Below, piece by piece: positions 1,823-64,000 of a DNA stretch of 64,000 nt. The notes below the pieces were generated by a model, which made no database searches, was not told the DNA's origin, and worked only from the letters and a program-made list of their open reading frames with translations. Numbering within the stretch: position 1 is the stretch's first letter; each line of letters begins with the position of its first letter. Source of the DNA: Nitrosopumilaceae archaeon (GTDB lineage: Archaea > Thermoproteota > Nitrososphaeria > Nitrososphaerales > Nitrosopumilaceae); assembly GCA_965200155.1 (NCBI GenBank), contig CBDATR010000043.1, positions 32,001-96,000 of the forward strand. Direction: 5' to 3'. The translations under genes were made by a program, and so were the position numbers.

Positions 1823-2903
1823 GTGTGAGTTCACCTGTGTCTAAATTTACGCATAACTGATCGCGACAGTTAAAGAACCGGTTCTTTTGTGCATAAGATT
1901 CCGGAATGTAATGTATGAAAAGTCGGTCCGCTAGTCATTGGTATCTCGCTCCATCCATTTTGCATCATTTGCCCTAATTGTCTGGGTCGCCTTTTTATTC
2001 CTGGAGTGGTGTTTCGCCGTTATCTATCCAGTGAGAAGTGCAACCTTCTCTCATTGTAGTAGTCCACATAATCCCGGAGACTGTCATGATGTCATATCTC
2101 ATTGGACTCTTAAATAAGAGTCCCCTCGTCCTCAATCGTTCTGTGGAAGCGCTCCAGTTTGCCATTTGTCTGTGGATGATATGGTCTGGAATTGATTAGT
2201 ATGATGTCTTGATCCAGCAGTTCTTCCTAGAATAGTGGGTTTCCAGTTCTTTTTGCCCTTTTGTTGTACTACGAAACACGCGCCGTTATCAGAGATGCAG
2301 GGGCGCCGAATCGTTTCATTGCCAGTCTCAGTAATAGAACGGTGTTCTCTGAGGTTGCATGCTAGAATAGTGCCGCTCCGACTATACACCTGGATGCATC
2401 ATCTATGAGATTCAGTCCCCCTGAAGCGCTCATCTTTTCATGACATGCCAGTGCCACATTGCATTGGAATATTTACGCTCATATCGTACTCACTCTGACT
2501 TTGCAGGTGATGATCCTGCTGTACCGTTCTTTTTCATTATGCGATATACTACGCGATATGTATTCTGTCTAAGCCTCTTTGCAATACGTACTACTCCGGC
2601 GGGGTCCTTGCTGTATGCTTCAGTTATCATTCGTATCTGGGTGGCGGTGATTGGTATCATGGGCCTGCCCATCTTTACTCGAGTCGTTCCCATTCTCTGG
2701 TTCACAATCTTCGTACGTGTCTTGTTTCAGGTCTTGAGCTATTTTGGTGGAGGTAACGTCTCTTTTGCGCTGTCTTACTATTGATTTCTCTGTTATTCTC
2801 TTTACCATATGGCTTGTGCAATCTGAACTACTGTACGCCGGATCCTAAGCGGACTTACTTTTCGTACTATTGACATAAGATTCCGGAAGACGTGAACTCA
2901 TAC
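1823..2903 (-). mobile_element. IS66-type MITE (99-bp variant) interrupted by IS481
   Basis: Halves at 1823-1906 and 2876-2903; 8-bp TSD AACCGGTT on both sides. Confidence 0.9.
1907..2875 (-). mobile_element. IS481-family element, transposase pseudogene
   Basis: TGT...ACA ends; WVRYERKYSNAMWH, DDASRC and PQTNGKLERF remnants; flanked by duplicated TAAGATTCCGGAA. Confidence 0.85.
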
Positions 2904-10286: not shown

Positions 10287-11857
10287 AATGTACAGAATCT
10301 ACTGCCAATATCTAGGAATAAATTCATCATAATTTTCGTTGTAAAACAGTCGTTTTTAGTCTAAAAGCCGGAAAAACATGTGGGGAATCACAATAATGTG
10401 CCCCACATGAAACTGTTAACGACTAGCTGATGAATAGGGAAACATACACCCGACGACATCAGAACATGACGGATCTTATTCCGGTGCTGGTAGCAGTCCG
10501 AAGGGATCCTGATCCCGACTAATATATGACCTTTGTGTTTACTATGGCACAAGCCATCTGAAACTCTTCATATCTATGGTTCCAAGATATATGTCGGACA
10601 TTCTAGTTGACATTTTGATCTTCCCTATACTTTGCTCTACCTTTATTCTGGTCTTGTTTATACGCGCGTTGTGTTTCCTCTGCTCTTCTGTTAGTTTCTC
10701 ATGTTTGGATCTCTTGAGCGGCTGGATAGATATGATTCCCGGTAATATCTTTTCTATACCCACAAATCCCAGATCCGTGTACAGTTTTACCTTCAATCCG
10801 GAGTTCTTTTTGATCATGGCCTCAAATAGTAATCCTAGACCATTTAGCTTTGCCATGGACTGCTTTAGAATACTAAAATCGTGCGTACTACCATCAAAGG
10901 CGTCGCTGGTCCATATTGTGGCCCCGTGAATATCGGTCAGTATTAGTATGGTGTATCCGTGTGATTTCTTTTTTCCGGAGTATTGACTTTTTTGTTTCCG
11001 GGGGTCTATGGGACGCACCGTCCGTACTACAGTACCATCCAGTATCAAAGGTATGACGCCATCCTCCTCTGCCAGCATGTTCGTGATATCCTCGTTGGTT
11101 TTTGCCGCACCTATGGCCTCAGTTATCTTCACCGGTGATGCCAGTGCTTCCTGTACCGGTTTTGATAAGACGCTGACATAGCGACTCACCGTGGACTGGT
11201 TCACTCCAAATTCCACTACTATTTCAGCTTCGGTCATTTTTGATCTGGCCCTAGTAGCATGATGAAAGAGCAGCTTGCGTCTGGACCCCGGTTCGGCTGA
11301 ATTCGCATCTAGATCCTTGAATAGTAGAGTCTTTTCGTGATTGCCTATGTTTTTTGACACACGACTGCAAATGGTATGAGTTCACGTCTTCCGGAATCTT
11401 GTGCACAAATCACATTAACTAGAACAACCTGTTCCATCAGTTGTGCGTAAATTTAGACACAGGTGAACTCATACTGCAAATGTACCAGAATGCCTCGATT
11501 GTCAACAATGCAGTGTCATGCATCTTTTTGTGATCCTTTACTGTGTTTTCCAAATTTACATAATGGCGTACATCATCCGGATCAGCCCTCTCTTTGATCA
11601 TCTTGTGAAGATATGCATCATCTTTCATGTGTGGTTAAGTTTGCAGGTGACTCTTCCAGTTCCTTGATCTTCCTATCTCTCTCTTCCAGCTTTTTATCCC
11701 TCTTTTTTATCCCCTTATGTGCGCGTTCAAGACTCACTTGAAGATGCTTTATCTCTTCAGTGGGTGTCTTAAATTTGGGCATCATATTTGCTGGAATAAT
11801 TCCACTTAGAAATGTTTTGTTTTGGAAATTGATGATTTGTCTGATTCTGCATATTCT
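10243..11857 (-). mobile_element. IS5-family (DDE_Tnp_4-like) element, type a; transposase interrupted by MITE
   Basis: TIR AGAATATGCAGAATCAGACAAATCATCA at both ends; ILDGT, YSGKKKSHG, HDF, DLGFVG and RIKVEQSIG motifs. Confidence 0.85.
11374..11474 (+). mobile_element. IS66-type MITE (101-bp variant)
   Basis: TSD TGCAAATG. Confidence 0.95.
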
Positions 11858-23540: not shown

Positions 23541-23641
23541 GTATGAGTTCACGTCTTCCGGAATCTTATGCACAAATCACATTAACTAGAACAACCTGTT
23601 CCATCAGTTATGCGTAAATTTAGACACAGGTGAACTCATAC
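23541..23641 (+). mobile_element. IS66-type MITE (101-bp variant)
   Basis: TSD CAGCCATT. Confidence 0.95.
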
Positions 23642-36252: not shown

Positions 36253-36351
36253 GTATGAGTTCACCTGTGTCTAAATTTACGCACAACTGATAGAACCGGT
36301 TACCAGTTAATGTGATTTGTGCACAAGATTCCGGAAGACGTGAACTCATAC
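36253..36351 (-). mobile_element. IS66-type MITE (99 bp, AGAACCGGTTAC variant)
   Basis: Full TIRs; an adjacent ~11-bp deletion relative to the other IS copy replaces the TSD. Confidence 0.9.
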
Positions 36352-37965: not shown

Positions 37966-39705
37966 GTATGAGTTCACGTGTTTTGATCACATAATAAGAT
38001 AGAATACATCCCAGTTTTTTTAATTATAACTGCATTCTGGCAGCAACCTCGTTCATTACAGAAAGGCCCTGAGCCCTCCATGTCTGAACACATGATACAA
38101 ATGTAGACATGCGGCGCATTGCCCTTTCGCCACCCTTTATCTGACCACTAATCTTGCGGAATACCACTGCGTATCGCAAAGCCTGCTCCGCTGGATTGTT
38201 GGTGGGCTCTACACAGTCATATTCTAAGAATACGAACATACATGGTATGGCCTTATTCAATCCTTTTACCTTCTTTTGTAGTTCAGTATCATTAACATCA
38301 CAGTACTGATGCAGAATGGATTCTGCTCCTGTCTCAAATGAGTGTCGTAATTGCGCGGACGGCCCGCAGTGATTCAGGGATTCCCGTGCGCTCCGGAACA
38401 ATCCTTTCAGGTCGTTGTCAAGTTTGATCCGGGCGTACTGAGCACCGGGATCAATATAGAATCCTGCATGTAATGCCTGGGTATCGCGCAGTAAATGCGC
38501 CCAACACAACTGGTGCCTCCCACCGTCATCAAACCGGCGATACACAACGTACCTGTCCGTTACTATCGCACCATGGTAACCGTTAAGGTATTTGTTCACT
38601 ACATTTGAACTCCTACTTTTGTCATATATGGACATCATCCACTCTTCGGCCCGCATCCCCCATACCCAACCACGCCTACCCGCCAGTGATATACCAGTTT
38701 CGTCCACATGTATGCTGGGTGATTTTATTATATTCTCATGAATTGTTTCCATAAATGATTCACATGCATCGGCGGCCCTGGCAATTATGTTGTTTACCGC
38801 ACCCACAGATATATTCAGGCCGAAGAGATCCTTCGAAATTACAGGTATGCGTTTTATTGGAATCTTTTCCGCACGCAATGCAGTGATAGCACCACATAAT
38901 TGAACCCCAAAATCACCACTCTTTGGGACGCCAGCTGCTGGGGCCAGTTGTTTTTTGCCGCACCCACACGCAGCCATTTCTATCACATGAAGGGTCTCCT
39001 CTATTTTGGCTGGTATTAATTCCGTTATGTGTCGTTGTTTCCAACCAATTTTTGTCATCATATTGCCGCACTCACATAGTGGAGTATGCTCAAAGGTGTG
39101 ATGCACTATTCTGCCGGGGTTGTGGGAACGGGAAACCCCCTTGTGTCCCTTTTGAGCGCCAGCCTTTTTGGCTGATTTAGTACTGGCTTCTTTCTGTTTC
39201 TTATTATCTCCCTGTTTTCGCTTCTGTTCCTCCTGTTTTCGCTTCTTGTACTGGAGGGATTGAAGGGATGGTGGCGAGTGGGCATTCTCATAATATTTAA
39301 GTCGCGTTGTGAGTACCGCAATTTTCCTGTCTTTTTCTACTAATTCCTCTTTCAATTCATTTACATAATTTATAATAATTTGGAAATCTTGTGCGAGATT
39401 TCGTATTTCTTTTGTGGTGCGGGACACATATGCTTCCAATACTCTCACACGTTCCTTGTAATGTGCAAGATCTTTCTCGGTAGCCGCAAGACGTAGGACA
39501 AGGCGGCCCATGGCCCCTGCCTTGTAATGTGCAAGTTCTTTCTTGGTAGACGCAAGGGTATCCTGAAGAAGCTTATTTTTCAGTTCTAATTCCTTATAGG
39601 ACAGGCGTCTTCTCATTAGATTCTTATTGCAAATTTGGTATTTAAGCAAAATATTGTCATACCAATCTATATCTTAGTGAATGATCAAAACACGTGAACT
39701 CATAC
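37966..39705 (-). mobile_element. Intact IS66-family element (single-ORF, ISBst12-like)
   Basis: 24-bp perfect TIR GTATGAGTTCACGTGTTTTGATCA; 8-bp TSD AAATTAGG. Confidence 0.95.
38024..39649 (-). CDS. tnpC: IS66-family transposase TnpC
   Basis: Coiled coil, HSPPS, GAQKGHKG, zinc ribbon, HVDETG, VTDRYVVY, HQLCWAHLLRD and PTNNPAEQALR. Confidence 0.95.
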   Translation of the reverse strand: MLKYQICNKNLMRRRLSYKELELKNKLLQDTLASTKKELAHYKAGAMGRLVLRLAATEKDLAHYKERVRVLEAYVSRTTKEIRNLAQDFQIIINYVNELKEELVEKDRKIAVLTTRLKYYENAHSPPSLQSLQYKKRKQEEQKRKQGDNKKQKEASTKSAKKAGAQKGHKGVSRSHNPGRIVHHTFEHTPLCECGNMMTKIGWKQRHITELIPAKIEETLHVIEMAACGCGKKQLAPAAGVPKSGDFGVQLCGAITALRAEKIPIKRIPVISKDLFGLNISVGAVNNIIARAADACESFMETIHENIIKSPSIHVDETGISLAGRRGWVWGMRAEEWMMSIYDKSRSSNVVNKYLNGYHGAIVTDRYVVYRRFDDGGRHQLCWAHLLRDTQALHAGFYIDPGAQYARIKLDNDLKGLFRSARESLNHCGPSAQLRHSFETGAESILHQYCDVNDTELQKKVKGLNKAIPCMFVFLEYDCVEPTNNPAEQALRYAVVFRKISGQIKGGERAMRRMSTFVSCVQTWRAQGLSVMNEVAARMQL

Positions 39706-43108: not shown

Positions 43109-43136
43109 AATGATTTCTCACTACTACAGGCGCCAA

Positions 43137-43173
43137 CCCATTAACGGAACAATGATGCAATCATTATAGTATG
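43137..43173 (+). promoter_or_regulatory. Upstream element shared with 46108-46144
   Basis: 37 bp with 4 mismatches, each copy ending at the ATG of a paralog. Confidence 0.6.
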
Positions 43174-45624: not shown

Positions 45625-45639
45625 TGATATAGCACTAAT

Positions 45640-46070: not shown

Positions 46071-46141
46071 CATTATACGAATCCATAAGCAGGCAATCCC
46101 CTGACAGCCCATTAACGGAGCAATGATGTAATTATTATAGC

Positions 46142-48844: not shown

Positions 48845-51657
48845 GGGCTGTAATCATTCTAGTCATCATTCTAGTATTCATTCCGCCGGTATATGCGTAT
48901 GACGTACAATTCCATTTCATAACAGAGAACGGGAACATCTTTCTACTATCTGGTCCTGATGAGCCAAGGCCGCCTAATATCATAGGTGAGACCGCATTTC
49001 TCAGTGTTGATAATCCTCCCGCCGGTATGTTCATTGTTACATCGAATAATGGAACGATTCAAAGAGTTACACCATTACAGACAGGGATAGACGTGAGTGA
49101 TTATTCCGGTAGTGATAGAGTAAGAGTCATCACTTATACTGATTGGAACGGTGGCAGTGTTAGAGAATTCCGTGATCAGCCATTCGGGACACTCTCCAAC
49201 GGCATTAATGGAATGTACCATTCTAATAGTATGGGATTAATCGCCGATTACAGTAACTATACAATGATGTCGGTGATTGATTCGTCCCGTTTTGATCTGG
49301 GTAGTGGCTCTGATAATACACTTGGTACACTAACACAGGGGAGTAACGGTGAATACACCATTAACATGGCAACAATGAATCGTGCAGGTCTTAATTTCGG
49401 GCCGGGATCTGATGCCACTTACTACATCTATTGGGGCTGTAGGGATTGCAATACAAATGTGGTTGTGGGATTCGGTGGCTCATCTGATCAGGCAAGACTG
49501 CCGAATGATCATCATCCAAGAGGTTGGGAATCAACACAGTCATGTGGTGTATCTGATACTGACACCTGGTCTACCAATTCGGGAACCATAGATGTTGATT
49601 ATCATATACCCTCAGAGGAACACAGTCAGGCAGGCGATTACACCATAAGTAATAGGTATGATGACTTGTCCATTCTACCACAGCATCATACTAGTTCTAC
49701 TTATACAGATGAGACAGATGATAACCGCCGGTTCGACATGGATATTATAGCTATAACCACGTCAACACCCAGAAGTGAGTATCTATTCTCATGCTCCGGA
49801 ACTATCACCGTTGAGACATGTGATGAACATGGGAGTAATTGTACGACTCAGTCAAGTAGTGGTAATTCCGGTACCACTACACGTTATACAGATGGCTCAT
49901 GTACTAATGAGATGAGTTCTCAGAGATCATCATCCCACATGGGCTACATTGCATCTGCTGATTGTACTGCTGGACCTGCACCATCTAAACCAGCTGATAT
50001 CAACAACCGTAGCAGTCCTGTAGATATGGGTGGCAACCAAACCAGAGTAACTACAAGAACATGTAACTATAATAGCAGTCCTACACTAATGGGTACAACT
50101 GCAACCATAAGTACAACATGTGATTTACACATACAGACCCCACACTTAACATTGAATGAGTCTCTAACAGTGAAGCCGGGTTTGAACATATACAGGCCGG
50201 ATTCCAGCTTCATAAACCAGAACCTCACTATAATAATGGATGACACAGAGAATGGTGGCGGGCAGAATGAGCGTATACAGGTATTCCACGGGCCGGATGA
50301 TATTCTAACAGGTCCATACGACTTTCATTTGAGAACGCCGGAATCCGGTATACTATATGATGATCATGACCACTATGGATGGATAGACCATACCAAATCA
50401 TATACAACCGAGATGCTAGAACAACTAGGATACACCATTAGAGTGTCGATGGCCGGATTCAATGACGGACTGGGTACTAGTGGGACGGAACCATACAACC
50501 CCGGCCAGCGACTATGCCATGGTGACTGTCTGTTAGGCCTGGAAGGGATTGACGGGGAGAAGCCAAGACTCATGGTCTTGAGGCAATCACCACCAAGTCA
50601 TGGAGTCGTTCTAAATGGATTAATCTATGATCACAAGAATAATGACTGGTATAGTAGTGGATTCGGGTATGGTACTGATGGACTAGTCACTGCAACATCA
50701 CTATACCTTACCGTTCCCTTCTCTGTTGATACCACTCTAGTGAATGTGTGGTTATTCAATGAGAACTTTGATCCAACACAACAACTCATATCACCGAATG
50801 ATGCATTGTCTCCCACAGCTGATCTATGTCACTTACGACAGGCAGGCCAAATTGAAATATTTGATGCCGGTCCCACCACCATATCAGCCGGGAACAGTAT
50901 TCACATACCTATTCTACCTGAAATGCGCTATTCAGCATTCATAGGAAATGGTGAATGTCACTGGTATGATATTGCCTCACTGCCTTCACCATTATCTAGT
51001 ATATCATCCGGTGCAAGAATGGTTCCATTGAATAACGGGACTATTCTAGGCGGCACGTTAACCGTAAAGCATGACGGACAGGCACATGTAGATATCATTA
51101 CTGACTTGCGTGCCGTTTACCAGTCCGAGATGTACGGGGATGTCATTATAGGAACACCGGCAGATATAACACAGTGGTCCGTCCCGCCCCTGAAAGTAAA
51201 CGTGACTGCAATAGCCCAGGTGAACGGGCTGGGAAGTTCCTGTGGTGATACCGGCATGTATTGTTCCCAGCCTATCACTCTAGTGAATAGCAGCGCTCCT
51301 CATATAGGCACATACATTCATGGCTCGGTTATGTCTGGTTCATTCACACATGATGAACCATACGGGATTGCCCCCACATCTGGTGCCGGACAGGATGAAT
51401 ATGGATTTGTAAATGGCCGGTGTTACGGACTGGAAACCATAATAGCTGATACAGGCGGCATTATTGCAAGAAGCATACCGGGAATACCTGTCAATGCCGG
51501 TGACACTATTGCTCTGTCATTTAATGTAATTGTGATCAGCCCAAGAACCATTCCCGGACTAATCGAGACAGAAACTACAGGTGAGATTTGTGATATAAAA
51601 CTGACCGAGCAGTCACTAATACTTGATGTCAGTACCATGACTGCCACACTGCGTTGA
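48841..51657 (+). CDS. Large secreted/surface protein, paralog 3, with a Cys/Ser/Thr-rich insert
   Basis: Signal peptide; FITENGNIF, CRDC, YDHKN and HIPILP; overlaps the previous stop. Confidence 0.75.
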   Translation: MRAVIILVIILVFIPPVYAYDVQFHFITENGNIFLLSGPDEPRPPNIIGETAFLSVDNPPAGMFIVTSNNGTIQRVTPLQTGIDVSDYSGSDRVRVITYTDWNGGSVREFRDQPFGTLSNGINGMYHSNSMGLIADYSNYTMMSVIDSSRFDLGSGSDNTLGTLTQGSNGEYTINMATMNRAGLNFGPGSDATYYIYWGCRDCNTNVVVGFGGSSDQARLPNDHHPRGWESTQSCGVSDTDTWSTNSGTIDVDYHIPSEEHSQAGDYTISNRYDDLSILPQHHTSSTYTDETDDNRRFDMDIIAITTSTPRSEYLFSCSGTITVETCDEHGSNCTTQSSSGNSGTTTRYTDGSCTNEMSSQRSSSHMGYIASADCTAGPAPSKPADINNRSSPVDMGGNQTRVTTRTCNYNSSPTLMGTTATISTTCDLHIQTPHLTLNESLTVKPGLNIYRPDSSFINQNLTIIMDDTENGGGQNERIQVFHGPDDILTGPYDFHLRTPESGILYDDHDHYGWIDHTKSYTTEMLEQLGYTIRVSMAGFNDGLGTSGTEPYNPGQRLCHGDCLLGLEGIDGEKPRLMVLRQSPPSHGVVLNGLIYDHKNNDWYSSGFGYGTDGLVTATSLYLTVPFSVDTTLVNVWLFNENFDPTQQLISPNDALSPTADLCHLRQAGQIEIFDAGPTTISAGNSIHIPILPEMRYSAFIGNGECHWYDIASLPSPLSSISSGARMVPLNNGTILGGTLTVKHDGQAHVDIITDLRAVYQSEMYGDVIIGTPADITQWSVPPLKVNVTAIAQVNGLGSSCGDTGMYCSQPITLVNSSAPHIGTYIHGSVMSGSFTHDEPYGIAPTSGAGQDEYGFVNGRCYGLETIIADTGGIIARSIPGIPVNAGDTIALSFNVIVISPRTIPGLIETETTGEICDIKLTEQSLILDVSTMTATLR

Positions 51658-52234
51658 CTCATGACCGTTCTTATGGGGGCGATAATCCCATGGCGACTTT
51701 CCAATCTGTCGTTGGGCACGGCTATAATGGGGTATAGTCACTCTGAGTCCCCAATAGGATGGTGAGGGATTAGAATAAACCTAAAGGGGATCCGGGGCTC
51801 GCCGCCTGTGAGATGGGATACCTGTGTTGAATAATTGGAAATCGATAATTGACACTAAAACAGGCATAGTGTGGGCTATATGGTGCAGATGGTTCTCATC
51901 TCCATTTGATATATGTCGGCAACCTTGTCAGTTTTGACTCCATTATCGGTGTGAATCTACAGTAGTGAGCCTGCCGATACATGCCGCATTATTTGGGGGC
52001 AGTTTTGTTATCTCTTGGTTATGGGCGGCCTGTGTTACATTGTATCAACCACACAGTTCTAACATTCCTGGTTATGTTCCATTTTGTCCAAGCAACCACT
52101 TCGGAACGTCCAATGATAGTCCCAAAAGATGTTTAATTGATACTTCCGGATGTTTTTTCAGTGATCCTTGGATATTTTGAGGCCACCCTGACCTGTCGTA
52201 AAATATTACTTCCTCAATGAAGCCCATGATTCTG

Positions 52235-53179
52235 CTATGTTGAGCACGCCGACCAGCCACAGGAACAGGACATACATGACTCTGTCCTGATCAACACGCC
52301 ACCACAACTAGGACAGCCGCCCCTGTATGGCGTGTCCTCCCAGATATCATCCTGTTTCCCATATATGGCCGTGGGTACCCAGTTCGGTATCACTTTTGTT
52401 ATGATTCTGTGAATGACATGATGATCCATACCCGGTGGTATTATAACACCGGGCCCTGATGCGCCCTCCCATGATTCCAGGAACCGGGCGGCTCTCAGGG
52501 CGGTCTCGGCCAGTTCAGGTAGTGGTATCTTACTCATGTCCAGCATCCCGCCGAACCGCCCCTCCCGGATCAAGCAACCGGTATACAGACATGCCATTTC
52601 AAAGACATTACGAAATGAGTCCGGCGAGTCATTCCAGTTGACATAGAGGGCGAACTTGTTCGTATATGTTAGAACATGCAACTGCTCCTGTATCATTGCC
52701 GGTATTGTAACACGGTACGGCCCGTTGTACCGGCCCTCCATGATTATTACATCATCTGGTATGAACCGGCCCGATAACACCAAGTCAGAACAGTCAGGCT
52801 CAATCCGCTCTATCGCTGTTCTAATACTGGCCGGATTGGTTGCCGCCCCTCTTAACATGGATAATGTGGATGCCTTGATATGTTTCAATGACTCATCGAT
52901 GCCCCCTGTAATGGTGGCCCGTTTTTGTCTCTCCACTCTCCTGCTGGCACGATACTCGATGTAACGCCTGCACGCATTGTATAGCCCGGCGCGCATCATT
53001 GTCTCCTCTGTTAGATTCCCCAGAATGGTAACATTTAGTGGTGGACGCGCCATTCTAGTGACATCCGCGGCCAGCTTTGCCGCTATCTCCGGCTCCACCC
53101 CTGCCTGTATCATTGCCTGACATATCTTGGACTCATCATACTTAGTAACGGTACCGTCACGCTTTACACAGGTAAGCAT
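52235..53179 (-). CDS. ATP-cone protein resembling a drastically shortened class II ribonucleotide reductase
   Basis: VKRDGT..YDESKI ATP cone; SGRFIP and AARFLE echoes; C-terminal CPSCG..ESCMSCSCGWSAC zinc ribbon. Confidence 0.7.
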   Translation of the reverse strand: MLTCVKRDGTVTKYDESKICQAMIQAGVEPEIAAKLAADVTRMARPPLNVTILGNLTEETMMRAGLYNACRRYIEYRASRRVERQKRATITGGIDESLKHIKASTLSMLRGAATNPASIRTAIERIEPDCSDLVLSGRFIPDDVIIMEGRYNGPYRVTIPAMIQEQLHVLTYTNKFALYVNWNDSPDSFRNVFEMACLYTGCLIREGRFGGMLDMSKIPLPELAETALRAARFLESWEGASGPGVIIPPGMDHHVIHRIITKVIPNWVPTAIYGKQDDIWEDTPYRGGCPSCGGVLIRTESCMSCSCGWSACST

Positions 53180-53421
53180 TCTTTACCACACCCATGAGTT
53201 CTTTTGGCTAACGCGGGTATCATGTTCGCTGCATCAGCCTTCATTATATTACCACACTTCTTACACATGTATGATATGATGGTCCCGCTAATGCCGGTAA
53301 ACCCACTGAAACCATCACAGGAATGCCTGATGGAATAGTTCGATACCTGGTCAGGCACATTCCCGTATGCCGAGAACTGATCCTTGCACTGATCACAATA
53401 GTATGAAATGGTTATCTTCAC
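53164..53421 (-). CDS. Small double zinc-ribbon protein
   Basis: CDQC..HSC and CKKC..HGC; overlaps both neighbouring genes. Confidence 0.65.
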   Translation of the reverse strand: MKITISYYCDQCKDQFSAYGNVPDQVSNYSIRHSCDGFSGFTGISGTIISYMCKKCGNIMKADAANMIPALAKRTHGCGKECLPV

Positions 53422-53951
53422 TATTCCATGACACCTATATCTACTAGTTTGCCATGTAACTGATTCACAGCTTCTGAAACGGCATTAATTGAGTTAGCCC
53501 CCACACATACAACATTTCCGGTGGCGAATAACAACATGGTACAGTCGGGCTTTCTCCATCGTATTATAACACCACTAAAGTGTTCCGGCTCATAGATTGT
53601 TCGAGGTATGAAACGGACCACCTGACTTAGGTCAATGCCTTGTGAGAATTTGGATGTAGCCACAACATTACAAATGTACCGCGTGACATTTCCCACTGGT
53701 ATATCGTGCTTCTTTAACGTCTCTATCATGGTATCCATGGCGCCAAAGGCTATTTCCGCGGTGGGCGCCCCGACAGCCACCATTTTTCCAGAACTGAATA
53801 CCATTACCGTCGTTCTATTGATTCTGAAACGGGCGGCGGGAAACTGTTCCGGCTCATACTCGGTACCCTCTATCTGGTGAACCGTATCCAGGGACAGCGT
53901 GGTGCCAATATATCCCGCGCATACTATATTGTGCGGCTTTATTTCAATCAC
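53421..53951 (-). CDS. tbp: TATA-box binding protein (divergent)
   Basis: Two repeats: NIV..YEPEQFPA..FSSGKMVAVGA and NVVAT..YEPEHFSG..FATGNVVCVGA. Confidence 0.92.
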   Translation of the reverse strand: MIEIKPHNIVCAGYIGTTLSLDTVHQIEGTEYEPEQFPAARFRINRTTVMVFSSGKMVAVGAPTAEIAFGAMDTMIETLKKHDIPVGNVTRYICNVVATSKFSQGIDLSQVVRFIPRTIYEPEHFSGVIIRWRKPDCTMLLFATGNVVCVGANSINAVSEAVNQLHGKLVDIGVME

Positions 53952-54429
53952 GGCGATTCAGAATATCACTCCCTTAAAAGGCGGGTCATACACTGGAATG
54001 ATACGTGGAAAAGAGCCATTCTAGTCCTGCTTGAAATCAATGGCGGTCACCATTCTCTGGTACATTGATGAGAAAAGTGCGTACTGTCCGCAAAAGCCTC
54101 ACTGAATTAAAAACCATCATTTCATGAAATGGGTTCTTTGATTGTATTCGTGACTTCTACCTGGATGTGCATGATTTCCGCCCTGAAAATAACCGGCATT
54201 ATTCCACGACAATGTGGGTACAATCCTGACGCTTACCATTTCCACAACCCTTGTCATATCTGGTGGGTCTTGCATCCATGACAAGAGTGATGCGGGAATA
54301 GTATAAACCGGTTAATACATAAAGAATATACCTTTCATGTTTTGTAGCTAGAAGAATAGAATCATAGTATAATTATGAAACGTAAATGTAGTGGATTAAT
54401 ACTAGACATAGAGGGTGAGCTTGTATGCA

Positions 54430-55080
54430 GTACATGTGGTGCCGTGAGAGGCTATGTGAATGAGGAAACGCCGAACATGGAGAGTCATGCACGACTGGAC
54501 TATTCCGGCAAGCTGGTTACACACTCTTTGCAAAAGTGATGAAGCAGGACACAGAAGGGTGTAACCGCTCATTACTGATTGCCATCTCACAGATACGAAA
54601 ATTACGTGACGAGTTAGCTCTCTGCCTGTACTATGCCATTTACCTGATTAGAAAGGCGATAGCCGCGAAATATCTTGTGGGCCGCTCTATTGAGTCATGT
54701 TCGGCCGCCGTCGTACTGCTGGCATGTCGAAAGCACGGTGTGAGTAGGACCATACCTGACCTGGTAAAGGCAACCGGACTTAGACGCCGGGAGATATACC
54801 GCACATACTCACAGATGACCGAGAAGTTTGCTGGCTCACTACCTGATCCTGTCATGTACATACCACGAGTGGGTACTGATGCCGGTATTACCGATAGAGA
54901 TGCCGTTAAGGTGATTCACTCACTGAATGGTGTTGAGGTACCAGTACCCGATTGCTGTTGCCGCGGGCGCACTATTCATGCAAGAGTATGGGTGAAATAG
55001 TGGACAGGGAGGAACTAGCCAAGGCTGCCGGTATTGGGGAAATGACCTTGATCACTATCACAAGGAAACTGCTATCATAA
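54430..55080 (+). pseudogene. tfb: Transcription initiation factor IIB (TFB), degraded
   Basis: RKA....LVGRSIESCSAAVVLLACRKHGVSRTI; P..YIPR; frameshifted EELAKAAGIGEMT tail. Confidence 0.8.
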
Positions 55081-55822
55081 TTTGGTTAACATGGCCTTTA
55101 CCTAGAATCAAACATAGGACTAATGAACGTTCAATTCAACCCAGACGGATTATTACAAGTTCCCGGCGATATATTGACAGGGCTTTCCACTCTATGCGTG
55201 ATGCCGCGAAAGCCGGTGTCACCGTGACGGTTGGTTTTTAATCATTCACTTTGTTCTTGTCATTCTGTCACTCACTCTCTCATTTATTCCCGGATTGATC
55301 AAAGACCCATCCAGTTGAAATCACGCCCGCCATACTAGAATGGTCTCTATATAACCGGATGAAACTGCAGACACAAGGAATACCATCCCTGCAAAGCACA
55401 TCACACCGAACAGAATGGTCCCAATGAATCTCCCGCGTTTCCACTCCTCACCAAAGTTGCGGCGCACACGGACATAGATTAGGTACGGGACCCACACCAG
55501 CAACCCTAGCGTGATGATGAAATTACTACTATTGTTATAATGAGTCTGGTTTATATCCCAGAACAGCTATAAATACCACAGAATCTGCTCGATCATTCCA
55601 CTCCTGTCCATCACTCCCACAAATTTCTCTTGGAATATAAGGGCGGACTGGTTTCGTCTGTATTGGACGCGCCTCGTTGGGCTGGAATATCTGTAAAAGG
55701 GATGGTGAATCCTTCATACCATGGCAGACTAAAGGATATCTCGTTATAGTGAGGAAGAGGAGCCGCATGAAAAAATAACCATAAGCAAGAAAAAACTTGT
55801 AATAATATTCATCATACTGGGA

Positions 55823-56101
55823 ATGTACTTTTTGAACCGGGATGAAATCCTGGACATGTGGGTCATTCATCTCTGGATTGTAATGGATCCGTTCGTGACA
55901 CCCATAACGAGTTTCATCTGGGCATGGTTGGAGTTTGCTATTCTGTGGTTCTTTCTGTCCTTCTTTGACACTCTGGTGCAACTGGAAATAGTATTACAGC
56001 CAGTCCTGACTGATTTTACCGAGGAGGTCAAAGAGTATACCCAAATGGTACACGAGCGTTTGACTAATAGGGTGTTATTAGTGCATAGATATCAAATCTA
56101 G
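55823..56101 (+). CDS. Small membrane protein
   Basis: Hydrophobic W/F-rich ORF. Confidence 0.35.
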   Translation: MYFLNRDEILDMWVIHLWIVMDPFVTPITSFIWAWLEFAILWFFLSFFDTLVQLEIVLQPVLTDFTEEVKEYTQMVHERLTNRVLLVHRYQI

Positions 56102-56481
56102 AGGACTTGTGATTGTTGAGGATGCAATAGAGATTCTAAAAGAATCCGGTTCCACAGATCACCGAAGAGCAGTACAACCGAATGCGTGAGAGAATCTTGG
56201 TCCAATAGCAGATGAGTTAGGAGAACTCAACGAATGACACCCCGAGAAATAGAAGAATACGAGAACTTTTACGTGACTTCAACCAATAATATGGAGCAAC
56301 TTCTGCATAGTTAGGGAACCATTATAGTCCATTTATTGCTGCTAGGGGATGAATACTGATCAAATATCAATACTCGTTTCACTGTTCATTGGAATTGATG
56401 AGCCCCATATCGGAATCATATTTGGAGCTGTTGGAATAGTCACGTGGCACGCCGTTATGACAGGCAGGTACCGCCAGAGCG

Positions 56482-56995
56482 ATGGAGGCGCGGTGGCCGT
56501 GTCTCAATGTTGCCACTATATGCGGTGTTACTAATTTGGTGGCACCACCCCGGCAATATACTGATAGCTGTTGTCGTTCTAGTGTGTTTCATGAGAACAA
56601 TTCGCAGTATTGTGCCGATGGGCATTCGGCTTTTGAATATGACTCGCCTTTTAAGGGAGTGATCAGCTGCCCACACGTGAAGTTAAAAGCTGATGAGGTT
56701 GACCGGATTGTATATGTTTCCCGGGACATATTCTATAATGAGAATCCAGCGCCTGATGTCCTGTACATATTTACACATGATAATATGAGTCTGGGATTAT
56801 ACCGCATAAAAACTACAGGCTGGCGGTATGCGATTTGTCTGTGTATTGAGGCGTATAGATATCATTAATCACAAGAGAAGATTACTACACGCACTGGAGA
56901 ACATGAAATGATTCATGTAATCATTATGGTATTGATGGGCGGTACCCTGCCGAGGCCGGAACGCAAGCCATTCTGGAAGAGGTGGAGACACTGAG
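56482..56995 (+). pseudogene. Possible SprT-like zinc metalloprotease remnant
   Basis: HEMIH (HExxH) lies just beyond a stop; upstream LGLY motif. Confidence 0.3.
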
Positions 56996-57884
56996 AGTAT
57001 CCTGCGTCATTCATGAATCTGTGCCCATATGCCTGCACTGTTCCAGGAAGCAATTCGGTAACTCAATCCATAATCTGGAGAATGGCAAGGGGAACCGCTT
57101 GCGGGCAATCTATTACGGCCTCTCCAGTCCTGTGGACTGTATTGAAGGGTAATTTACTCCCTGACAACTTTCCTGATCAAGAAAAATGCGTATAGTGATG
57201 ACAAGGAGATAAACTTTGTAGTGGACGAGTGTGCTTACTGTCATTCTTGTGCGGTTTCAATGGAGAACAAACTGATATGGAGGTTGACAAACCATTACCG
57301 GATAAGATAAAACTACCCCCGGCGAACAGAATCTCCCACTGCCCAGTCATTGGTGCAGAAAACCCATACAAGAATAACCACTCTACTACCTGGAATCATA
57401 GTAGCGTCATGTATGCTTGGATATGTAGCATTCATGCATGATTCATCCAGTGTTGCCGGAAATGTCATTTTACTCGTAATGGGCGGCGCGTCTACATACC
57501 TGCTACTAATGACGCGGGAGAGGGTCCGCATTACGGGATGTAATGGTAGATAACATTATGATACAAAGTTCAGAGGTGGGTCAAGAGGAAAAATCAGCAC
57601 CCGCATTACGGGACAAGATAATTTATCCAGTCGCGTTCACACTCTTGCTTCACTATTGGTAGAGCCGTGGCTCATTATACCCATGGCAATATTAACAGGG
57701 AGTACCTGGTTCCGCTCGGTGGCTGTAGAAAAGAACATGCGTACGAAAGACATACTGTACAACTATATGATGAGGGTAAACAAATACTGGGAATAGCCAA
57801 ATGGATGCTAGAGAACGGTGCAAGCGAAGTCAATGTAATAGGAGAGTTCAAGCCATTCGTTGAGAACAGATCACCTTTGAGTGT

Positions 57885-58931
57885 GTGGTCAAAAACGGAG
57901 TGAATGTGATAAAAATTACTGCCTTTTTATGGTACCATGAATTACACTATAACATGATAAGAATAAGACCAAATGAATGGTTACATATGGAGTTTAAGGG
58001 TTCAGGTAAGATAAACAACACTCAAAAGATATCAGGAACATTATACATGACCAATAGGAGAGTAGTCATTCAGGGCAGTGACGGTCCCATTTGGACTGGA
58101 CTGATCAAGGATATGACAGTCTCTGTTGAGAATGATATATGTCATATGAAAGTCGGACGTGATGATGTAACATGGAAATCCTCAACCATTCCCGTTTCCT
58201 GGTGGGGCAATGCTATCATGTTCTGGAAGAAGGGAACCATTCTTGCACCGGACGGTGGGGAACCCTCACACAATTACGGGATATACCCGCCTGTCTATAA
58301 TGATATAACAGAATTGCCGGACTTGATAAAAAATTCTGAATGGAATATACGCTGGTATACAAAAGACGAGCTGGAACAATGCGGCATGGGAACGCCGGAG
58401 AATAGTGATGGATTTGAGAGAACCGTATACAAGACCAATCTTATACTGGCTGCATTACGTCATGACGGATTCCCCCAGGGGCCACCAAACACGCATCTTA
58501 GAATGCTCCACCGCCGTCATGCACTAGTCCATGTAACGTATCTGGTATGGGGGTGGAAGCAGGGTATACGACACATGATGACAAGGGTGACCGGTTACGG
58601 CCATTACGCCGGTGACGGACAGATAGCCATGTACCGCCAGCCTCCGGACAAGATGTTCGAGCCAAAGCCGTTCTCCCCTATCAAGAGAGAGTGGCACCAC
58701 GAGATCAATCCCGCGCACTGTGGCGGCCATACATATGAAATTCTGGAGACATGTCATAGAATGTTGCCAATCATTACCAGGGTAGCCGATGAACTACACG
58801 CTGACCCGACATGGCACCCGTACATTAGGTTACGCCAGATATATGAGGCCATACGGGATGACAAGGCCATCCCGCCGCCAGTCAAGGAGGCATTACCATT
58901 GGCACGGGCGGCAACAGATAACCCGTGGTGA
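57885..58931 (+). CDS. Hypothetical protein with N-terminal PH/GRAM-like domain
   Basis: SGTLYMTNRRVVIQ resembles the bacterial PH-domain motif G.L.LT..R..F. Confidence 0.55.
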   Translation: MVKNGVNVIKITAFLWYHELHYNMIRIRPNEWLHMEFKGSGKINNTQKISGTLYMTNRRVVIQGSDGPIWTGLIKDMTVSVENDICHMKVGRDDVTWKSSTIPVSWWGNAIMFWKKGTILAPDGGEPSHNYGIYPPVYNDITELPDLIKNSEWNIRWYTKDELEQCGMGTPENSDGFERTVYKTNLILAALRHDGFPQGPPNTHLRMLHRRHALVHVTYLVWGWKQGIRHMMTRVTGYGHYAGDGQIAMYRQPPDKMFEPKPFSPIKREWHHEINPAHCGGHTYEILETCHRMLPIITRVADELHADPTWHPYIRLRQIYEAIRDDKAIPPPVKEALPLARAATDNPW

Positions 58932-59045
58932 CACTAATGCCGTGGGACGCGAGACCGACCATAATGAAACCGGATGGCTCCGCCATACCGGGAATCATTC
59001 CCGTCCGCCATGAAACTGATTCAGTTCTGGGTGACTAAAACCATT

Positions 59046-59447
59046 CTAATCCCAGAATAGATCACGCTTGAACTGTATGAAAATGGTATCCCCCTTACAG
59101 GAATACTGCCTCTTTGTGTAATTACCCCTCCATATCATTACTTCATCGCCGGGTGTCATATTAGTTGACATCGCTACCGGAAACATTAGCTGCCAGAAAT
59201 GAACCGTGTTATATCCCCTAAACTCCCTGACATTCAGTATGTGTGATATGATATCTTTATTGTGACGTTTCTTGCCCAATCGTAACATCTTTTCGGACTG
59301 AATGCCGAGCCACTGATAGGGGCCAAACTCATTAACAAAGTCACCTGTCATGAGAAGTGGTAATCTCACCTTGAAATAGACTCTGTCGGTTATCTCACCG
59401 TATACCTGCTGCATCTGTATCTTGCGTGTTTTATAATGCCTTGACAT
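59046..59447 (-). CDS. Hypothetical protein
   Basis: 133-aa ORF filling the gap between divergent neighbours; no recognised motif. Confidence 0.45.
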   Translation of the reverse strand: MSRHYKTRKIQMQQVYGEITDRVYFKVRLPLLMTGDFVNEFGPYQWLGIQSEKMLRLGKKRHNKDIISHILNVREFRGYNTVHFWQLMFPVAMSTNMTPGDEVMIWRGNYTKRQYSCKGDTIFIQFKRDLFWD

Positions 59448-59459
59448 ACCATTATACCA

Positions 59460-60542
59460 GTGTGGAGTGGTTTAAAGCTGGTCGAGCACCAGGAAAAGAA
59501 GCGAGAAAACCTGGTACAAGCTATTCTAGCCTATGTGGGGACGGCATCATTTCTTACATACCGTGATGACACCGGCATGGTCCGTTACTCGATGTGCTTT
59601 GATGATCAATATCTCTCATACATTCGCGGTTTGCACGCAGTTGATACGGAACTAGGTGGTGTAGAGATAAAGCCCAGTGACCCGCCCAGTATCTTAGCAG
59701 AATGCCCACTAATCTGGGACATGGAGATGACCGGATTCGGCGCCGCGGAACTCCCGTCCAGTACCGGCAAGCGTTCTGCTACATCCGCCCTTGGTACACA
59801 GATAACCGATATTGCATACCGCCTAATGATATGCCAGCGAGTCCCGTACAGCAGGGTAATAACCGAGTATGTTAACAATGGGGGAAACCCGCAGGGAATA
59901 TGCCGCAAGGTAGCCGGAATGGCCGCACGCGAGGCCGTCTCATTTGTCATGACCGATGCCAAAAATAACACCACCCCCAAGGTGACACCCAAGAAGGAAC
60001 CATACACTCATACCAGAATCATCCTTGGAGCCAGGGACGTGAATCACCTGGAGATATTGCGTGACTCATTCCCCGCGGGTTCCATAAAGAAACGGGGTGT
60101 GATAAAGCCGGAAACTATTCACGGAGTGATAGGAATGCCGCCGCCAGCCAGGTCTGTCCATACGCCTGTCTTTAACGACGAAGAGTTGGGAAAATTGGAA
60201 ATCATACCGACCAGAGTGACAGAAGTGCCCATGCCCTATGGGAGAGCAATCACCAGTACTACCCAGCCCCCCATAAGGTTCCCTGATATCTTATTCTGGG
60301 ATGATAATTCCACCACTCCCGGTTACAGCCCGTTATTCTTGGCCGATGAGAATGGAAATGAGACGGATGATTCCGAGCCTGGTATAATAGGGAATGATTC
60401 TGTTGAGGAACCGAATAATTCGATGAATGGTGAACCCGTTATGGAAGAGCCTGCCACAGAAGAGAGTAGTAGTGGGAATGGTTTCGGTTTTAGAATAATC
60501 AATGGGAAAGAAAGGTTCCCGGTTAGAGTGATTCCCGGTTAG
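59460..60542 (+). CDS. Hypothetical protein with an acidic C-terminal tail
   Basis: 360-aa open frame; no confident family. Confidence 0.55.
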   Translation: MWSGLKLVEHQEKKRENLVQAILAYVGTASFLTYRDDTGMVRYSMCFDDQYLSYIRGLHAVDTELGGVEIKPSDPPSILAECPLIWDMEMTGFGAAELPSSTGKRSATSALGTQITDIAYRLMICQRVPYSRVITEYVNNGGNPQGICRKVAGMAAREAVSFVMTDAKNNTTPKVTPKKEPYTHTRIILGARDVNHLEILRDSFPAGSIKKRGVIKPETIHGVIGMPPPARSVHTPVFNDEELGKLEIIPTRVTEVPMPYGRAITSTTQPPIRFPDILFWDDNSTTPGYSPLFLADENGNETDDSEPGIIGNDSVEEPNNSMNGEPVMEEPATEESSSGNGFGFRIINGKERFPVRVIPG

Positions 60543-60568
60543 AGTGATTCCCGGTTAGAGTGATTCCC
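60516..60568 (+). repeat. 16-bp tandem repeat TTCCCGGTTAGAGTGA x3.3
   Basis: Three perfect units spanning the stop codon of 59460-60542. Confidence 0.95.
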
Positions 60569-60643
60569 TTGAGCCATTCTATCATCCGGGAATTTCTGCA
60601 TGATCTCAATCGTGACTTGCCGGGACCATTTTGTAACATCTGA

Positions 60644-60991
60644 TTGTCCCATAATCTTGATTTTAAATATATAATTCTCGATGAAAACAACGATAGTTTT
60701 TTATCTCATTCTTTGTATATGATCTATTATCACATTGCAATTTTAATCGCCGGTTGTCTTGCAATTCTTGCGTATGGTGTCGTTCTAACATTGGACGTAT
60801 GTTATGTTGGAGTTAGCTCAATTCTTGCGGCTGTTGTTGCACTTATTAATATAATTTGGTACAGGAGCGGCCGTACTATTGTGACGTATTTCTCGATTGC
60901 TTTAACTACAGCGCTGATGGTTCAGAATTTCACAACAGTAGTAGAATCTTTCCTGATCATACCCACAACCATATTACTACCGCAATCGTGA
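60644..60991 (+). CDS. Small multi-TM membrane protein (start probably 60719)
   Basis: Three hydrophobic segments. Confidence 0.45.
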   Translation: MSHNLDFKYIILDENNDSFLSHSLYMIYYHIAILIAGCLAILAYGVVLTLDVCYVGVSSILAAVVALINIIWYRSGRTIVTYFSIALTTALMVQNFTTVVESFLIIPTTILLPQS

Positions 60992-61304
60992 AGCTTGTAC
61001 GCGGTTACATACAGGGACCCCGCCCCATAGAGACGAGTCAATAGACTGTTCGTTCACTCTCTGGTTGTGGTCGTTACCACAAGAATTATTCAATGGTATG
61101 GAATACCTTGGTAAATTCTAAAGAATAGCGCCCGCCATGACTCCTTGGATAAATTTGTTGGAATATAGGTTTCCCCCTACCGCGCTCTCCCAGAACCTTC
61201 CACCGGCATCATTCCAGGAATGGTAACCCCTCCCGCATGGAACTTGATTCTGGTAACAGTAATTCCAGACTCACTTTTTATAACAATAATAATGACTGAG
61301 TAAT

Positions 61305-64000
61305 ATGGGCAAATTCAATGAAGTATTAGAGCAGATACGTCGGGAATCAGGGAATAACAAGGAGCTTGGTGACAAGTTTGAGGTGCTCATGGTGGAGTAT
61401 TTCAAGAATTGTAAGCAGTACGGCTTGGAAGATGTACAAATATGGCCCAAACAAGATTTGGGAATAGATATACTGGCGCATGACAAGTTCGGGGAACGGT
61501 GGGCAATACAATGCAAATGTCATGATGTTGATTCCACATTACAGTATGAGGGAAATGTATCCAATTTGTGGTCTGCCGCCGAAATGAATGGTATACAAAA
61601 CAATAGTCACCACTGCCAAACCCAGCACCAACCTTGAAAAAGTATGTAAACAGACCAATACACATATCATATGAGGATCTCGAATCCGCCAATATAGAGT
61701 GGAGTACTGATATCATTCAGGCACGAGAGCCCCACAAATTATACGAACATCAAAGTGAGGCTTTAAAGGATTGTCTGGACGGGTTCACCAAGCATGATCG
61801 CGGTCAACTCATCATGGCATGCGGTACTGGTAAGACACTAACATCACTCCATATAGCGGAAAAACAAGTCGGGAATAGTGGATTGGTTCTATATCTTGTG
61901 CCGTCCATATCGCTCATAAAGCAGACTATACAAGCATGGTCTGAGAATGCCAACATAGAACATCAGTACATGGTAGTTTGCTCAGACAGTACCGTAAAAG
62001 GTAAGGAGGATATCTCTGTGACTGATATAGTTGGATCAGTGACGACTGATCATGACTTATTGAGGGAGCAGTATGAAAAGACCAATAGCGATGCGCGTTA
62101 TTTTCTGCACGTACCAGTCCGCGGATGTCATAAAGGAATCATTCAGCGGAATGCAGTTTGACTTGATAATATTCGATGAAGCGCATAGGACGGCCGGAAA
62201 ACAGGATAAGAGCTTTGCTCTAGCACACCATGACGAGAATATTAACTCTGCAAAAAGACTCTACATGACTGCAACTCCCCGTATGTACAATCGGGAGGGC
62301 GTGACTGATGGTTATTCCATGGATGATTATAGTATATTCGGTAGACGGTTCCACGAGTTGAAGTTCTCCAAGGCCATAGATACTGGCATACTATCTGATT
62401 ACAAGGTAGTGGGACTTCGTATCTTGGCCGATGATTTGGACAAGGCTAGGGCAGACGCGGGCGAGGCCGATGATTTCACACTGGAGGAGGAGTGTAAGCT
62501 GGCATCAATATACAAGTCCATAAAGCAGCAGGATGAGAGTCTGGAACCAAATCTCCTACAGCGTATTCTAGTATTCCATAATAAAATACCACAATCTAAA
62601 CGATTCGAGATTGCATTTCCCAAGATAGTGAAACGAATGGATGGAGAAGGTGTGGATGTACGTCATATTGACGGGAATAGTCGTGCACGGGACCGCGCGT
62701 CAACCATAGAGTGGTTGAAGAGGGGGGAATCCGATGTACGAATAATATCAAATGTAAGATGTCTATCAGAAGGAGTGGATGTTCCCGCCCTGGATGGTGT
62801 GGTATTCTGCGAGCCCCGCCAGTCAGTAATAGATGTGGTGCAGTCACTTGGGAGAGTAATGCGAAAGTCACCGGGCAAAAGTATAGGATATGTTATAGTA
62901 CCTGTAGTGGTATCTCGTAACGAGGCTATTGAGCATGTTATAAATCGCGATAAATCAAACAAGCTAATACTTCGTATGAGTTCACCTGTGTCTAAATGGA
63001 ACGGGTCATTCTATAACTGATCGCGACAGTTAAAGAGTAACCGGTTACTATTTTGTGCATAAGATTGGAACCGGTTCCAAGACGTGAACTCATACAATAC
63101 TTCAGCTTGCAGATGCATTAAGAGCACATGATGACAGGATAGACCGCTACTTCAATCAGGCGAGACTTGTTTCTGATGGTGGTTCCGGTGGTGAGAGTTC
63201 GGAGCCCGGTATAATAGTGCCGCCGCAAATTGCCAGTATTTTTGATGTCCTGCCTGCAACACTACTCAAGGTCGGATACTATTGGGATGATTACGGGTTC
63301 AAACTGGGTGAGAAAGCTGCCATAGTCGCGATGAAGGCCAAGAATCGCGGTGAAACAGCATTCATAGAACGATTACATAAAGACCTACAAGGTGTAGTCA
63401 GCGATACAATAACGCGAGATGATACTATAGATGCTATTTCACAACATATCGTACTGGCGCCTGTCTTTGAGGCGCTTTTCGGGCAGACAAGTAACCCAGT
63501 TTGGAAGGCGTTTAACCATGTAGCAGAAGAATTAGACTTTAGTACGGAATTAGATGATTTAGAAGAGTGGCACCAATTAATGTGGTACCATGTTGAGAAT
63601 ATAACAAATCCACAGGCAAAGCAGAATGTAATAATCAAGGTATATGGTAATTTCTTTAAGGGATTTGACAAAAAACAGGCCAAGACCATAGTATACACGC
63701 CTGTCGAAATAGTGGATTTCATTATTCAATCGGCACAGTATGTATTGGAGTCAGAGTTCGGAACAGGGTTCGATGGGAATATTCGCGTGTTGGATCCTTT
63801 CGCAGGAACCGGTGTATTTCTGGCTCGGTTGTTAGAATCAGGTCATTTGGGTACGCATCCAGCAGAGATGCTTTTTGGTGAGAACAAGTTATTAGCATAT
63901 TATACCGCGTGCGCAAATCTGGAAACCACAATGGAGAAGGTGACAGGGATTAGCACTCCGTTCATGAATGGTTCATACGTGGATACATTCACAATTCCGC
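61305..64000 (+). pseudogene. Type ISP restriction-modification enzyme with two frameshifts and a MITE insertion; runs off the window
   Basis: DLGIDI..AIQCK; MACGTGKT; DEAH; QSLGRVMRK; after the MITE the frame continues through ALRAHDD, IVYTPVEIVDFI and VLDPFAGTG. Confidence 0.88.
62974..63095 (-). mobile_element. IS66-type MITE (122 bp, three palindromic replacements)
   Basis: TSD AATACTTC; TIRs intact. Confidence 0.95.

Follow-up and report, generated by a model that had tools for sequence, protein, structure and literature searches.

The closest described counterparts of the locus analysed here are pairs of a MITE (a miniature transposable element with inverted repeats) and an autonomous insertion sequence (IS), where textbook MITE subfamilies differ from one another by point changes or deletions. 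The locus is a MITE copy in a stretch of 64,000 nucleotides (the window) that covers positions 32,001 to 96,000 of the forward strand of contig CBDATR010000043.1, assembly GCA_965200155.1, from a Nitrosopumilaceae archaeon. Like the elements of such pairs, it belongs to a family that is short and non-coding, has terminal inverted repeats in common with an IS, is flanked by an 8-bp target duplication and runs to hundreds of near-identical copies. Unlike them, its interior has been remodelled by discrete palindromic replacements: at four fixed sites of the MITE, 4-7 bp have given way to hairpin modules of 12-20 bp.

Several other described processes come close to this pattern. In microhomology-mediated end joining (snap-back or synthesis-dependent) and in quasi-palindrome template-switch mutation, the template classically lies in the immediate flanks. 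The modules resemble the products of these processes in that a few bases are replaced by a longer, often inverted-repeat filler, and in the apparent correction of one hairpin arm from the other (the step from module A1 to A2, and a gain of CGTTC in one copy of a second MITE family), but here the flanks are not the template and the same 12-mer stands at unrelated sites. Staggered excision of P and Tc1/mariner elements in eukaryotes leaves palindromic leftovers derived from both element ends, and the modules are similarly quasi-palindromic; they differ from such footprints in that they show no target duplication and that neither an element with matching ends nor an occupied site was found. Also known are small hairpin-forming units that multiply inside a single genome, as the GC clusters of yeast mitochondria (PMC4478555) and as bacterial repetitive extragenic palindromic (REP) sequences and REPINs (PMC3116915, PMC3733652). 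Such units are 20-50 bp or longer, whereas ours measure 12-20 bp, replace target bases and occur only inside mobile elements; REPs depend on a Y1 transposase (REP-associated tyrosine transposase, RAYT), which was not found here, and lie mainly between genes. Finally, gene conversion between diverged DNAs in Sulfolobus acidocaldarius is reported to be short-patch and uncoordinated, with markers a few tens of bases apart resolved independently (PMC3367456). That work concerned transformation with supplied DNA in a distant archaeon, in contrast to the roughly 600 genomic repeats and the 12-15-base hairpin loop considered here. We regard the present case as a variant of MITE evolution, conversion among repeats and templated insertion.

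An AmoA match (E=1.7e-115) marks the host as an ammonia-oxidising archaeon; the organism is found in metagenomes of sponges, and its assembly comprises 2.38 Mb in 51 contigs at 87.6% completeness. Genome-wide, 606 pairs of MITE ends were identified, with 398 copies of exactly 92 bp, 58 of 99 bp and 69 of 101 bp; the 92-bp copies differ from their consensus at 0-5 positions. In the window, the 12-base MITE end motif is present 44 times, against 0.44 expected. The first 14 bases of the MITE end are also found on an element of 1.65-1.8 kb, and the common end GTATGAGTTCACGT is carried by 524+514 MITE ends and 165 IS ends. Intact copies of the longer element encode a transposase of 501-530 residues that matches the Pfam domain DDE_Tnp_IS66 (E=3e-39). 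Since its ends are common to an IS encoding an IS66 transposase, the short element is a MITE mobilised by an IS66-family element. The target duplications of the IS66 family are 8 bp long, and duplications of this length are visible also at other MITE copies whose flanks were compared. A 24-base MITE probe matched the genome 586 times at up to two mismatches and 597 times at up to three, and gave no match in 30 relatives or in 400 other genomes of the class; nine congeners lack both the MITE and the modules. In a metagenome scan with a two-gap pattern, the matches listed were single and apparently random, and a search of Rfam yielded no family matching the MITE.

Alleles were called by aligning all copies of a length other than 92 bp to the 92-bp consensus. 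The alignment reproduced the four replacement sites that had been proposed in an earlier reading of this DNA, made from its letters alone (the sequence-only reading). At site A, TGTGA is replaced by AGAACCGGTTCT; at site B/C, CGCGAC is replaced by GGAACAGGTTGTTCT (module B) or CGCGA by AGAACCGGTTAC (module C); at site D, TTACGC is replaced by GGAACGGGTCATTCT; and at site E, CCGG is replaced by GGAACCGGTTCC. Nested forms are A1 (AGAGTAACCGGTTCT), A2 (AGAGTAACCGGTTACTAT) and E2 (GGAGTAACCGGTTACGTTCC). Every copy listed in the earlier reading has the allele ascribed to it, including GGAACGGGTCATTCT, AGAGTAACCGGTTACTAT and GGAACCGGTTCC in the copy at 62974-63095. Its description of the inserts also holds: they are stereotyped, derived replacements, neither copied from their flanks nor accompanied by a target duplication, and read inward they begin RGAAC or GTAAC (R, purine; Y, pyrimidine). 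The module family can be written as RGAAC-N-GGT-(0-5 bases)-N'-GTTCY, in which, by our own reading, N and N' pair as C-G in A, E and a module of the IS66 element, as A-T in B, and as G-C in D and in a second MITE family. Modules A and E form perfect 16-bp palindromes together with their flanks.

Site counts were taken from an anchor-based census, which gave 403 base, 47 A, 5 A1 and 4 A2 at site A; 444 base, 67 B and 21 C at site B/C; 534 base and 15 D at site D; and 532 base, 8 E and 2 E2 at site E, with a few point variants per allele and one unrelated odd allele. Classification by exact models, counted separately, assigned 398 copies to the base class and 67, 40, 18 and 1 to the single classes B, A, C and D. 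The combined classes were D+A (2 copies), D+A+E (1), D+A1+E (5), D+A2+E (2) and D+A2+E2 (2); this classification contained no A+B, A+C or B+E copies, the combinations being nested only.

That the modules are an artefact of assembly, adapters or chimeric joining has a negligible probability, and no observation spoke for it. The same alleles are found on many contigs of the assembly, and the locus itself, compared between independent samples over one 2.5-kb stretch, is present in seven runs from two studies. In contigs of two other samples, from two studies, the unique left flank runs on into the MITE as far as the first bases of D, and the whole E module is continuous with the unique right flank, with 0-1 differences in each case. 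A 53-base unitig matches module A2 exactly, and raw Illumina reads of a third study contain the A, A1, A2, E and E2 alleles. Independent contigs and raw reads thus show the inserts to be real, with module D represented in independent samples by its first 5-6 bases only, in contigs of X5 and X2.

The replacements in different copies had previously been counted as independent events, a view that the distribution of alleles contradicts. Alleles are common to between 2 and 67 copies and accompany the same linked polymorphisms as are found in unmodified copies. T/C sites at MITE positions 32 and 65 (both GCA[T/C]AA) flank the B/C and A sites and are strongly linked (TT 205, CC 124, TC 40, CT 29; p=5e-39), which suggests two master lineages; most other recurrent MITE variants are transitions. 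Classes B, A and C each occur with all four haplotypes, in proportions like those of the base class (p=0.81, 0.29 and 0.19, respectively), and B and A share other base-class variants as well. Both 40-bp flanks are common to the MITE copies within each of 23 groups, of which four were mixed in allele. One holds six copies with C and one with A; two others each consist of a base copy and a B copy, with identical rare linked markers 23-24 bases away. The fourth was dropped, as both of its target duplications differ and its copies are therefore independent insertions. Three of the 23 groups thus record a switch of allele at an unchanged locus, over a patch some tens of bases long. Short-patch conversion would explain both the presence of module alleles on every haplotype and this switching. 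The alleles have spread by transposition and by short-patch gene conversion among the roughly 600 copies, and about eight founding replacements are enough for the approximately 170 module-bearing MITE copies, with one more for IS66.

The direction of change is readable at a single site, in the IS66 transposase gene. All ten full-length IS66 copies with a frame of at least 501 residues have the short allele GCTTTGC, encoding ..PTNNPAEQALRYAVVFRKISG.. inside the Pfam domain, and all nine with TGGAACCGGTTCT at this position read ..AEQWNRF-stop, in frames of at most 467 residues. Because the short allele encodes the conserved motif and the palindrome allele introduces a stop, the palindrome reads clearly as the derived state here. 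For the MITE, the series from 92 through 99, 108, 116 and 119/122 to 130 bp would be simpler as gain, and the change from CCGG to GGAACCGGTTCC would not be reversible by one contiguous deletion. Another IS66 site, 'I' (GCAGAATCCATTCTGC), was rejected as a writing event: its palindrome is the ancestral coding sequence and its short allele an 8-bp deletion. All four combinations of the two IS66 alleles exist.

IS66 copies that bear a module and have a dead transposase roughly equal in number those with the short allele (about 38 module sites compared with 46 short-allele loci). Such numbers would suit selection at the level of the element, in which palindromic repair fillers arise at random and only those resembling the GAAC/GTTC core of the element ends (GTGAAC / GTTCAC) would raise IS66 mobilisation and multiply. 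The MITE and IS66 ends do contain GAGTTCAC / GTGAACTC, and palindromic inserts of a non-GAAC type also exist in the genome. However, the likeness to the ends extends over 4-5 bases only, the same 12-mer is present in elements whose ends are different, and point mutants of one arm have been left uncorrected. We therefore assign a low probability to selection as the source of the common module form.

The modules are not confined to one family. The 12-mer RGAACCGGTTCY has 110 sites in this genome, compared with 0-2 in each of 30 relatives. Three of the MITE sites carry it, and so do about 38 IS66 copies, the second MITE family and a repeated gene. The motif GAACCGGTTC has 113 sites, 61 of them outside MITEs with paired ends, and nearly all of these 61 are in other repeats: about 38 in IS66 copies, five in copies of the second MITE (227-232 bp) and six in copies of the repeated gene, where AGAACCGGTTCC stands in frame at a position at which 70%-identical paralogues have GACGGT. 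The second MITE also carries TGGAACGGGTTACATTCC, whose stem is common with module D (GGAACG/CATTC, the C-A mismatch included), and in one of its copies a gain of CGTTC converts an imperfect hairpin into a perfect one. Comparably, in the step from A1 to A2 the right arm gains, save for one base, the bases that the left arm had gained in A1; a template switch from the other arm cannot create the first arm. Longer stretches also recur between unrelated elements: A2 shares AGTAACCGGTTACT with a hairpin that lies downstream of a TnpB gene, and the second MITE shares GGGAACCGGTTCTATT with a repeat whose copies of it differ by point changes only. Outside repeat families, those sites of the core AACCGGTT that were listed singly are about as frequent as a rough chance estimate predicts, and modules are not enriched in unique DNA. 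Two candidate sites were set aside: in 'fam4', GAACCGGTTC arises by point changes only, without insertion, and is native there, and site 'K' of an rve-type element (TGAACATCAGTTCA) has heterogeneous alleles that make its membership doubtful.

Identical or homologous modules in unrelated mobile elements, arm correction, covariation of the stem and the absence of modules from unique DNA lead us to favour, tentatively and with less than even confidence, founding events in which templated break repair copied existing hairpin modules, which conversion then spread. Each founding event would begin with a break, or with a nick where the folded MITE exposes a single-stranded loop. During its repair, the polymerase would switch templates at homologies of a few bases and copy either a module already present in a different mobile element or one arm of a module from its opposite arm. 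Conversions between modules via their common AACCGGTT core would account for the nested forms (A to A1 to A2, and E to E2), and no untemplated 'writing' enzyme would be needed.

A number of observations weigh against templated repair. The 12-base limits are sharp in nine of nine contexts, with a purine first and a pyrimidine last that are not always complementary, whereas template-switch patches should have ragged limits. No clear microhomology was found at the module junctions, and the 15-mers of B and D have no other occurrence in the assembly that could have served as donor. The common 14-16-mers are partly palindromic and carry less weight than their length implies, and templated repair leaves the origin of the very first module unexplained. 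In addition, the MITE is predicted to fold, as a single strand, into a long imperfect hairpin with B/C in the apical loop, A and E in internal loops and D in a stem; the position of three of the four sites in predicted loops is only suggestive (about 7% by chance, by our own estimate).

Constant 12-base limits and predicted loops as targets would both be in keeping with modules that are themselves a very small mobile unit, a 12-15-bp hairpin with R..Y ends which an enzyme excises or copies and sets into single-stranded loops at the cost of a few target bases. The recurrence of the unit in at least five unrelated elements and the landing of modules inside modules (E to E2) point the same way, as does a different palindrome in a second transposase gene. 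This is a 27-bp insert with a 20-bp palindrome, GGACTCTTA..TAAGAGTCC (GGACTCTTAAATAAGAGTCC), at window positions ~2100-2126, which only part of the copies of the rve-type element carry and which puts a TAA stop into the ..ERFHRTIEDE/IWHYD.. motif of the transposase. Given this 20-bp palindrome, palindromic inserts are not limited to the GAAC type. On the other hand, the genome yielded no candidate enzyme (neither a Y1 transposase nor a resolvase, and TnpB genes that are orphans), the unit is not enriched in unique DNA, and the variable loss of 4-7 target bp matches no known transposition chemistry. A mobile hairpin therefore appears unlikely to us. We hold to be equally doubtful the broader proposal of an undescribed activity, present or recent, that sets short hairpins (RGAAC..GTTCY, perhaps also GGACTCTTA..TAAGAGTCC) into exposed loops of mobile elements while removing a few bases.

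The rve-type IS that carries this insert is about 970 bp long and occupies window positions 1904-2871, inside the MITE copy at 1823 and just after TTCCGGAA, with an apparent 15-bp duplication, CATAAGATTCCGGAA. Genome-wide, it has 40 near-full copies, all degenerate, with a longest frame of 203 residues.

The sequence-only reading had attributed the inserts to extension of both 3' ends at a double-strand break with a near-fixed RGAAC.. oligonucleotide, by a biased terminal transferase, a primase-polymerase or an activity like that of a reverse transcriptase, with the tails annealing at CCGG or another short overlap. Each side does start independently with GAAC preceded by A or G (or with GTAAC), differences between the centres (CGG, AGGTT, GGGTCA) are what joining by different overlaps would give, and the outer R and Y are not always complementary. 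The proposed agent, however, was not recovered. Profile searches gave no match to Ku, NucS or Prim-Pol, nor to the PolX palm domain, and the sole reverse transcriptase found is broken by a frameshift; with a genome 87.6% complete and a PolX control that was positive in only two of 14 known genomes, this is a weak test. Only about eight events are counted, there are no one-sided or half products, and N and N' covary (C-G, A-T, G-C), unlike two independent tails. RGAAC inserts are a minority among the insertion polymorphisms of the genome's repeats and do not amount to a general bias of insertion. Among 256 insertion-type allele classes, the strict RGAAC pattern is seen in 10 and by eye in 12 further rows (C, D, E2 and an IS66 variant). 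The remaining 234, in which this bias is missing, consist of tandem duplications, of inverted duplications templated by the flanks (such as ACTC+GAGT and TATGC..GCATA) and of other fillers. Extension of broken ends is, in our judgement, improbable.

The same reading had offered, as an alternative, the residual ends of an excising element, so that the modules would be the terminal bases left from either end when a different element, once inserted here, was excised. Palindromic leftovers such as those of P and Tc1/mariner excision would be consistent with this, and so would the variable centres, which are expected from end joining. A scan for inverted-repeat pairs beginning RGAAC-like within 3.5 kb, however, produced MITE- or IS66-derived pairs only, and no larger element was found at the sites. 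All internal MITE breakpoints are accounted for by the modules themselves and by eight rve-type insertions at MITE coordinate 77, and target bases are lost rather than duplicated. Excision footprints are accordingly a very improbable source of the modules.

Further searches for a responsible activity were equally negative. The Y1 transposase profile (PF01797) had no match in the genome and was positive in control genomes. About 20 TnpB (Cas12f-like) matches are orphan, with neither a Y1 transposase nor a serine recombinase (e.g. C10:489981-490172 and C9:57835-58023), and variable hairpins lie just downstream of these elements; a 28-copy 'GTAACCGGTTTCCC' family proved to be TnpB coding sequence. 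Cutting of the MITE guided by TnpB would be a further candidate process. A 21-kb CRISPR array at C9:71006-92087 holds 289 copies of a 36-base repeat and 288 spacers, and none of 18 non-self spacer matches falls in the MITE or the IS66 element, so that self-targeting was discarded. Bulge-helix-bulge introns were rejected by eye, since no pairing is seen between the sequences flanking the IS66 module. An origin in restriction cutting (TCCGGA / TCGCGA) was judged not to apply: the loss at site E would correspond to a 4-base overhang, but the losses elsewhere would not. The motif GGAACCTCTCTA, considered as a candidate end, is concentrated on small contigs of low GC content and is unconnected with the MITE sites. 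No description of such a signature was found in the literature searched.

Several observations concern the MITE family and its genomic setting more widely. Older, diverged MITE relatives of 70-90 bp (C13:38304-38386, C7:23699-23781 and others) are without the nine bases ATGTGATTT that hold site A, and from these relatives it appears that the 92-bp form may itself have arisen by insertion at this spot. At five loci (C5:89735-89881, C24:186487-186600, C13:27467-27586, C24:4448-4582 and C25:10561-10725) a complete MITE is followed directly by a second, partial right-hand part, and one of the junctions coincides exactly with module A's left edge; such arrangements could be products of one-ended or aborted transposition. 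Many small contigs (C2-C4, C6, C8, C11, C14-C18, C21, C26-C29, C32-C33, C38-C41, C44-C45, C47-C49 and C51) have a GC content of 35-43%, compared with 45-49% in most large contigs, and almost no MITE copies; they may represent another replicon, a virus or another organism. Within the window, positions 43109-62973 form 19.9 kb without any MITE end, compared with about one per 2 kb elsewhere, and contain large unfamiliar reading frames and restriction/helicase-like genes; this region may be a recently acquired island. The coordinates of the MITE copy and of related features are collected in Table 1.

Table 1. Features of the MITE copy at 62974-63095 and related module sites, in window coordinates.
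Feature	Position	Strand	Remarks
MITE copy, 122 bp (92-bp consensus), class D+A2+E	62974..63095	+	inside helicase / restriction-type gene
8-bp target duplication AATACTTC, left copy	62966..62973		read from sequence
8-bp target duplication AATACTTC, right copy	63096..63103		read from sequence
Left terminal inverted repeat GTATGAGTTCAC, common to IS66-family element	62974..62985	+	
Right terminal inverted repeat (GTGAACTCATAC)	63084..63095	-	
Module D, GGAACGGGTCATTCT replacing TTACGC	62998..63012		hairpin with 6-bp stem and GGT loop; like second-MITE module
Module A2, AGAGTAACCGGTTACTAT replacing TGTGA	63034..63051		final step of series A (12 bp), A1 (15 bp), A2 (18 bp)
Module E, GGAACCGGTTCC replacing CCGG	63067..63078		with flanks, 16-bp perfect palindrome TTGGAACCGGTTCCAA
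Module A, AGAACCGGTTCT, in MITE copy 1823	1874..1885		
Module A (AGAACCGGTTCT), further window sites	7650-7661, 11906-11917, 19644-19655		
Module B, GGAACAGGTTGTTCT, in copy 11374	11421..11435	-	
Module B (GGAACAGGTTGTTCT), further window sites	14429-14443, 23588-23602	+, - (in this order)	
Module C, AGAACCGGTTAC, in copy 36253	36292..36303		
Intact IS66-family element, 530-aa reading frame	37966..39705	-	short ancestral allele at module site; genome C43:69966-71705

If the conservative explanation by templated repair and conversion is true, this family would provide an unusually clean natural record of very-short-patch exchange among dispersed archaeal repeats, with hairpin patches copied between unrelated mobile elements, and would bear on the origin of MITE subfamilies and of structured repeats. 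If the bolder explanation is true, it would represent a new way to make or move DNA hairpins of 12-20 bp that inactivate transposases, of interest for mobile-DNA biology and for tool development. The products of such a writer or mover of hairpins truncate transposase genes in two unrelated IS families, and the activity could thus act as a host brake on transposons. Under either explanation, the presence of the symbiont in many sponge samples means that the turnover of these alleles can be tracked locus by locus.

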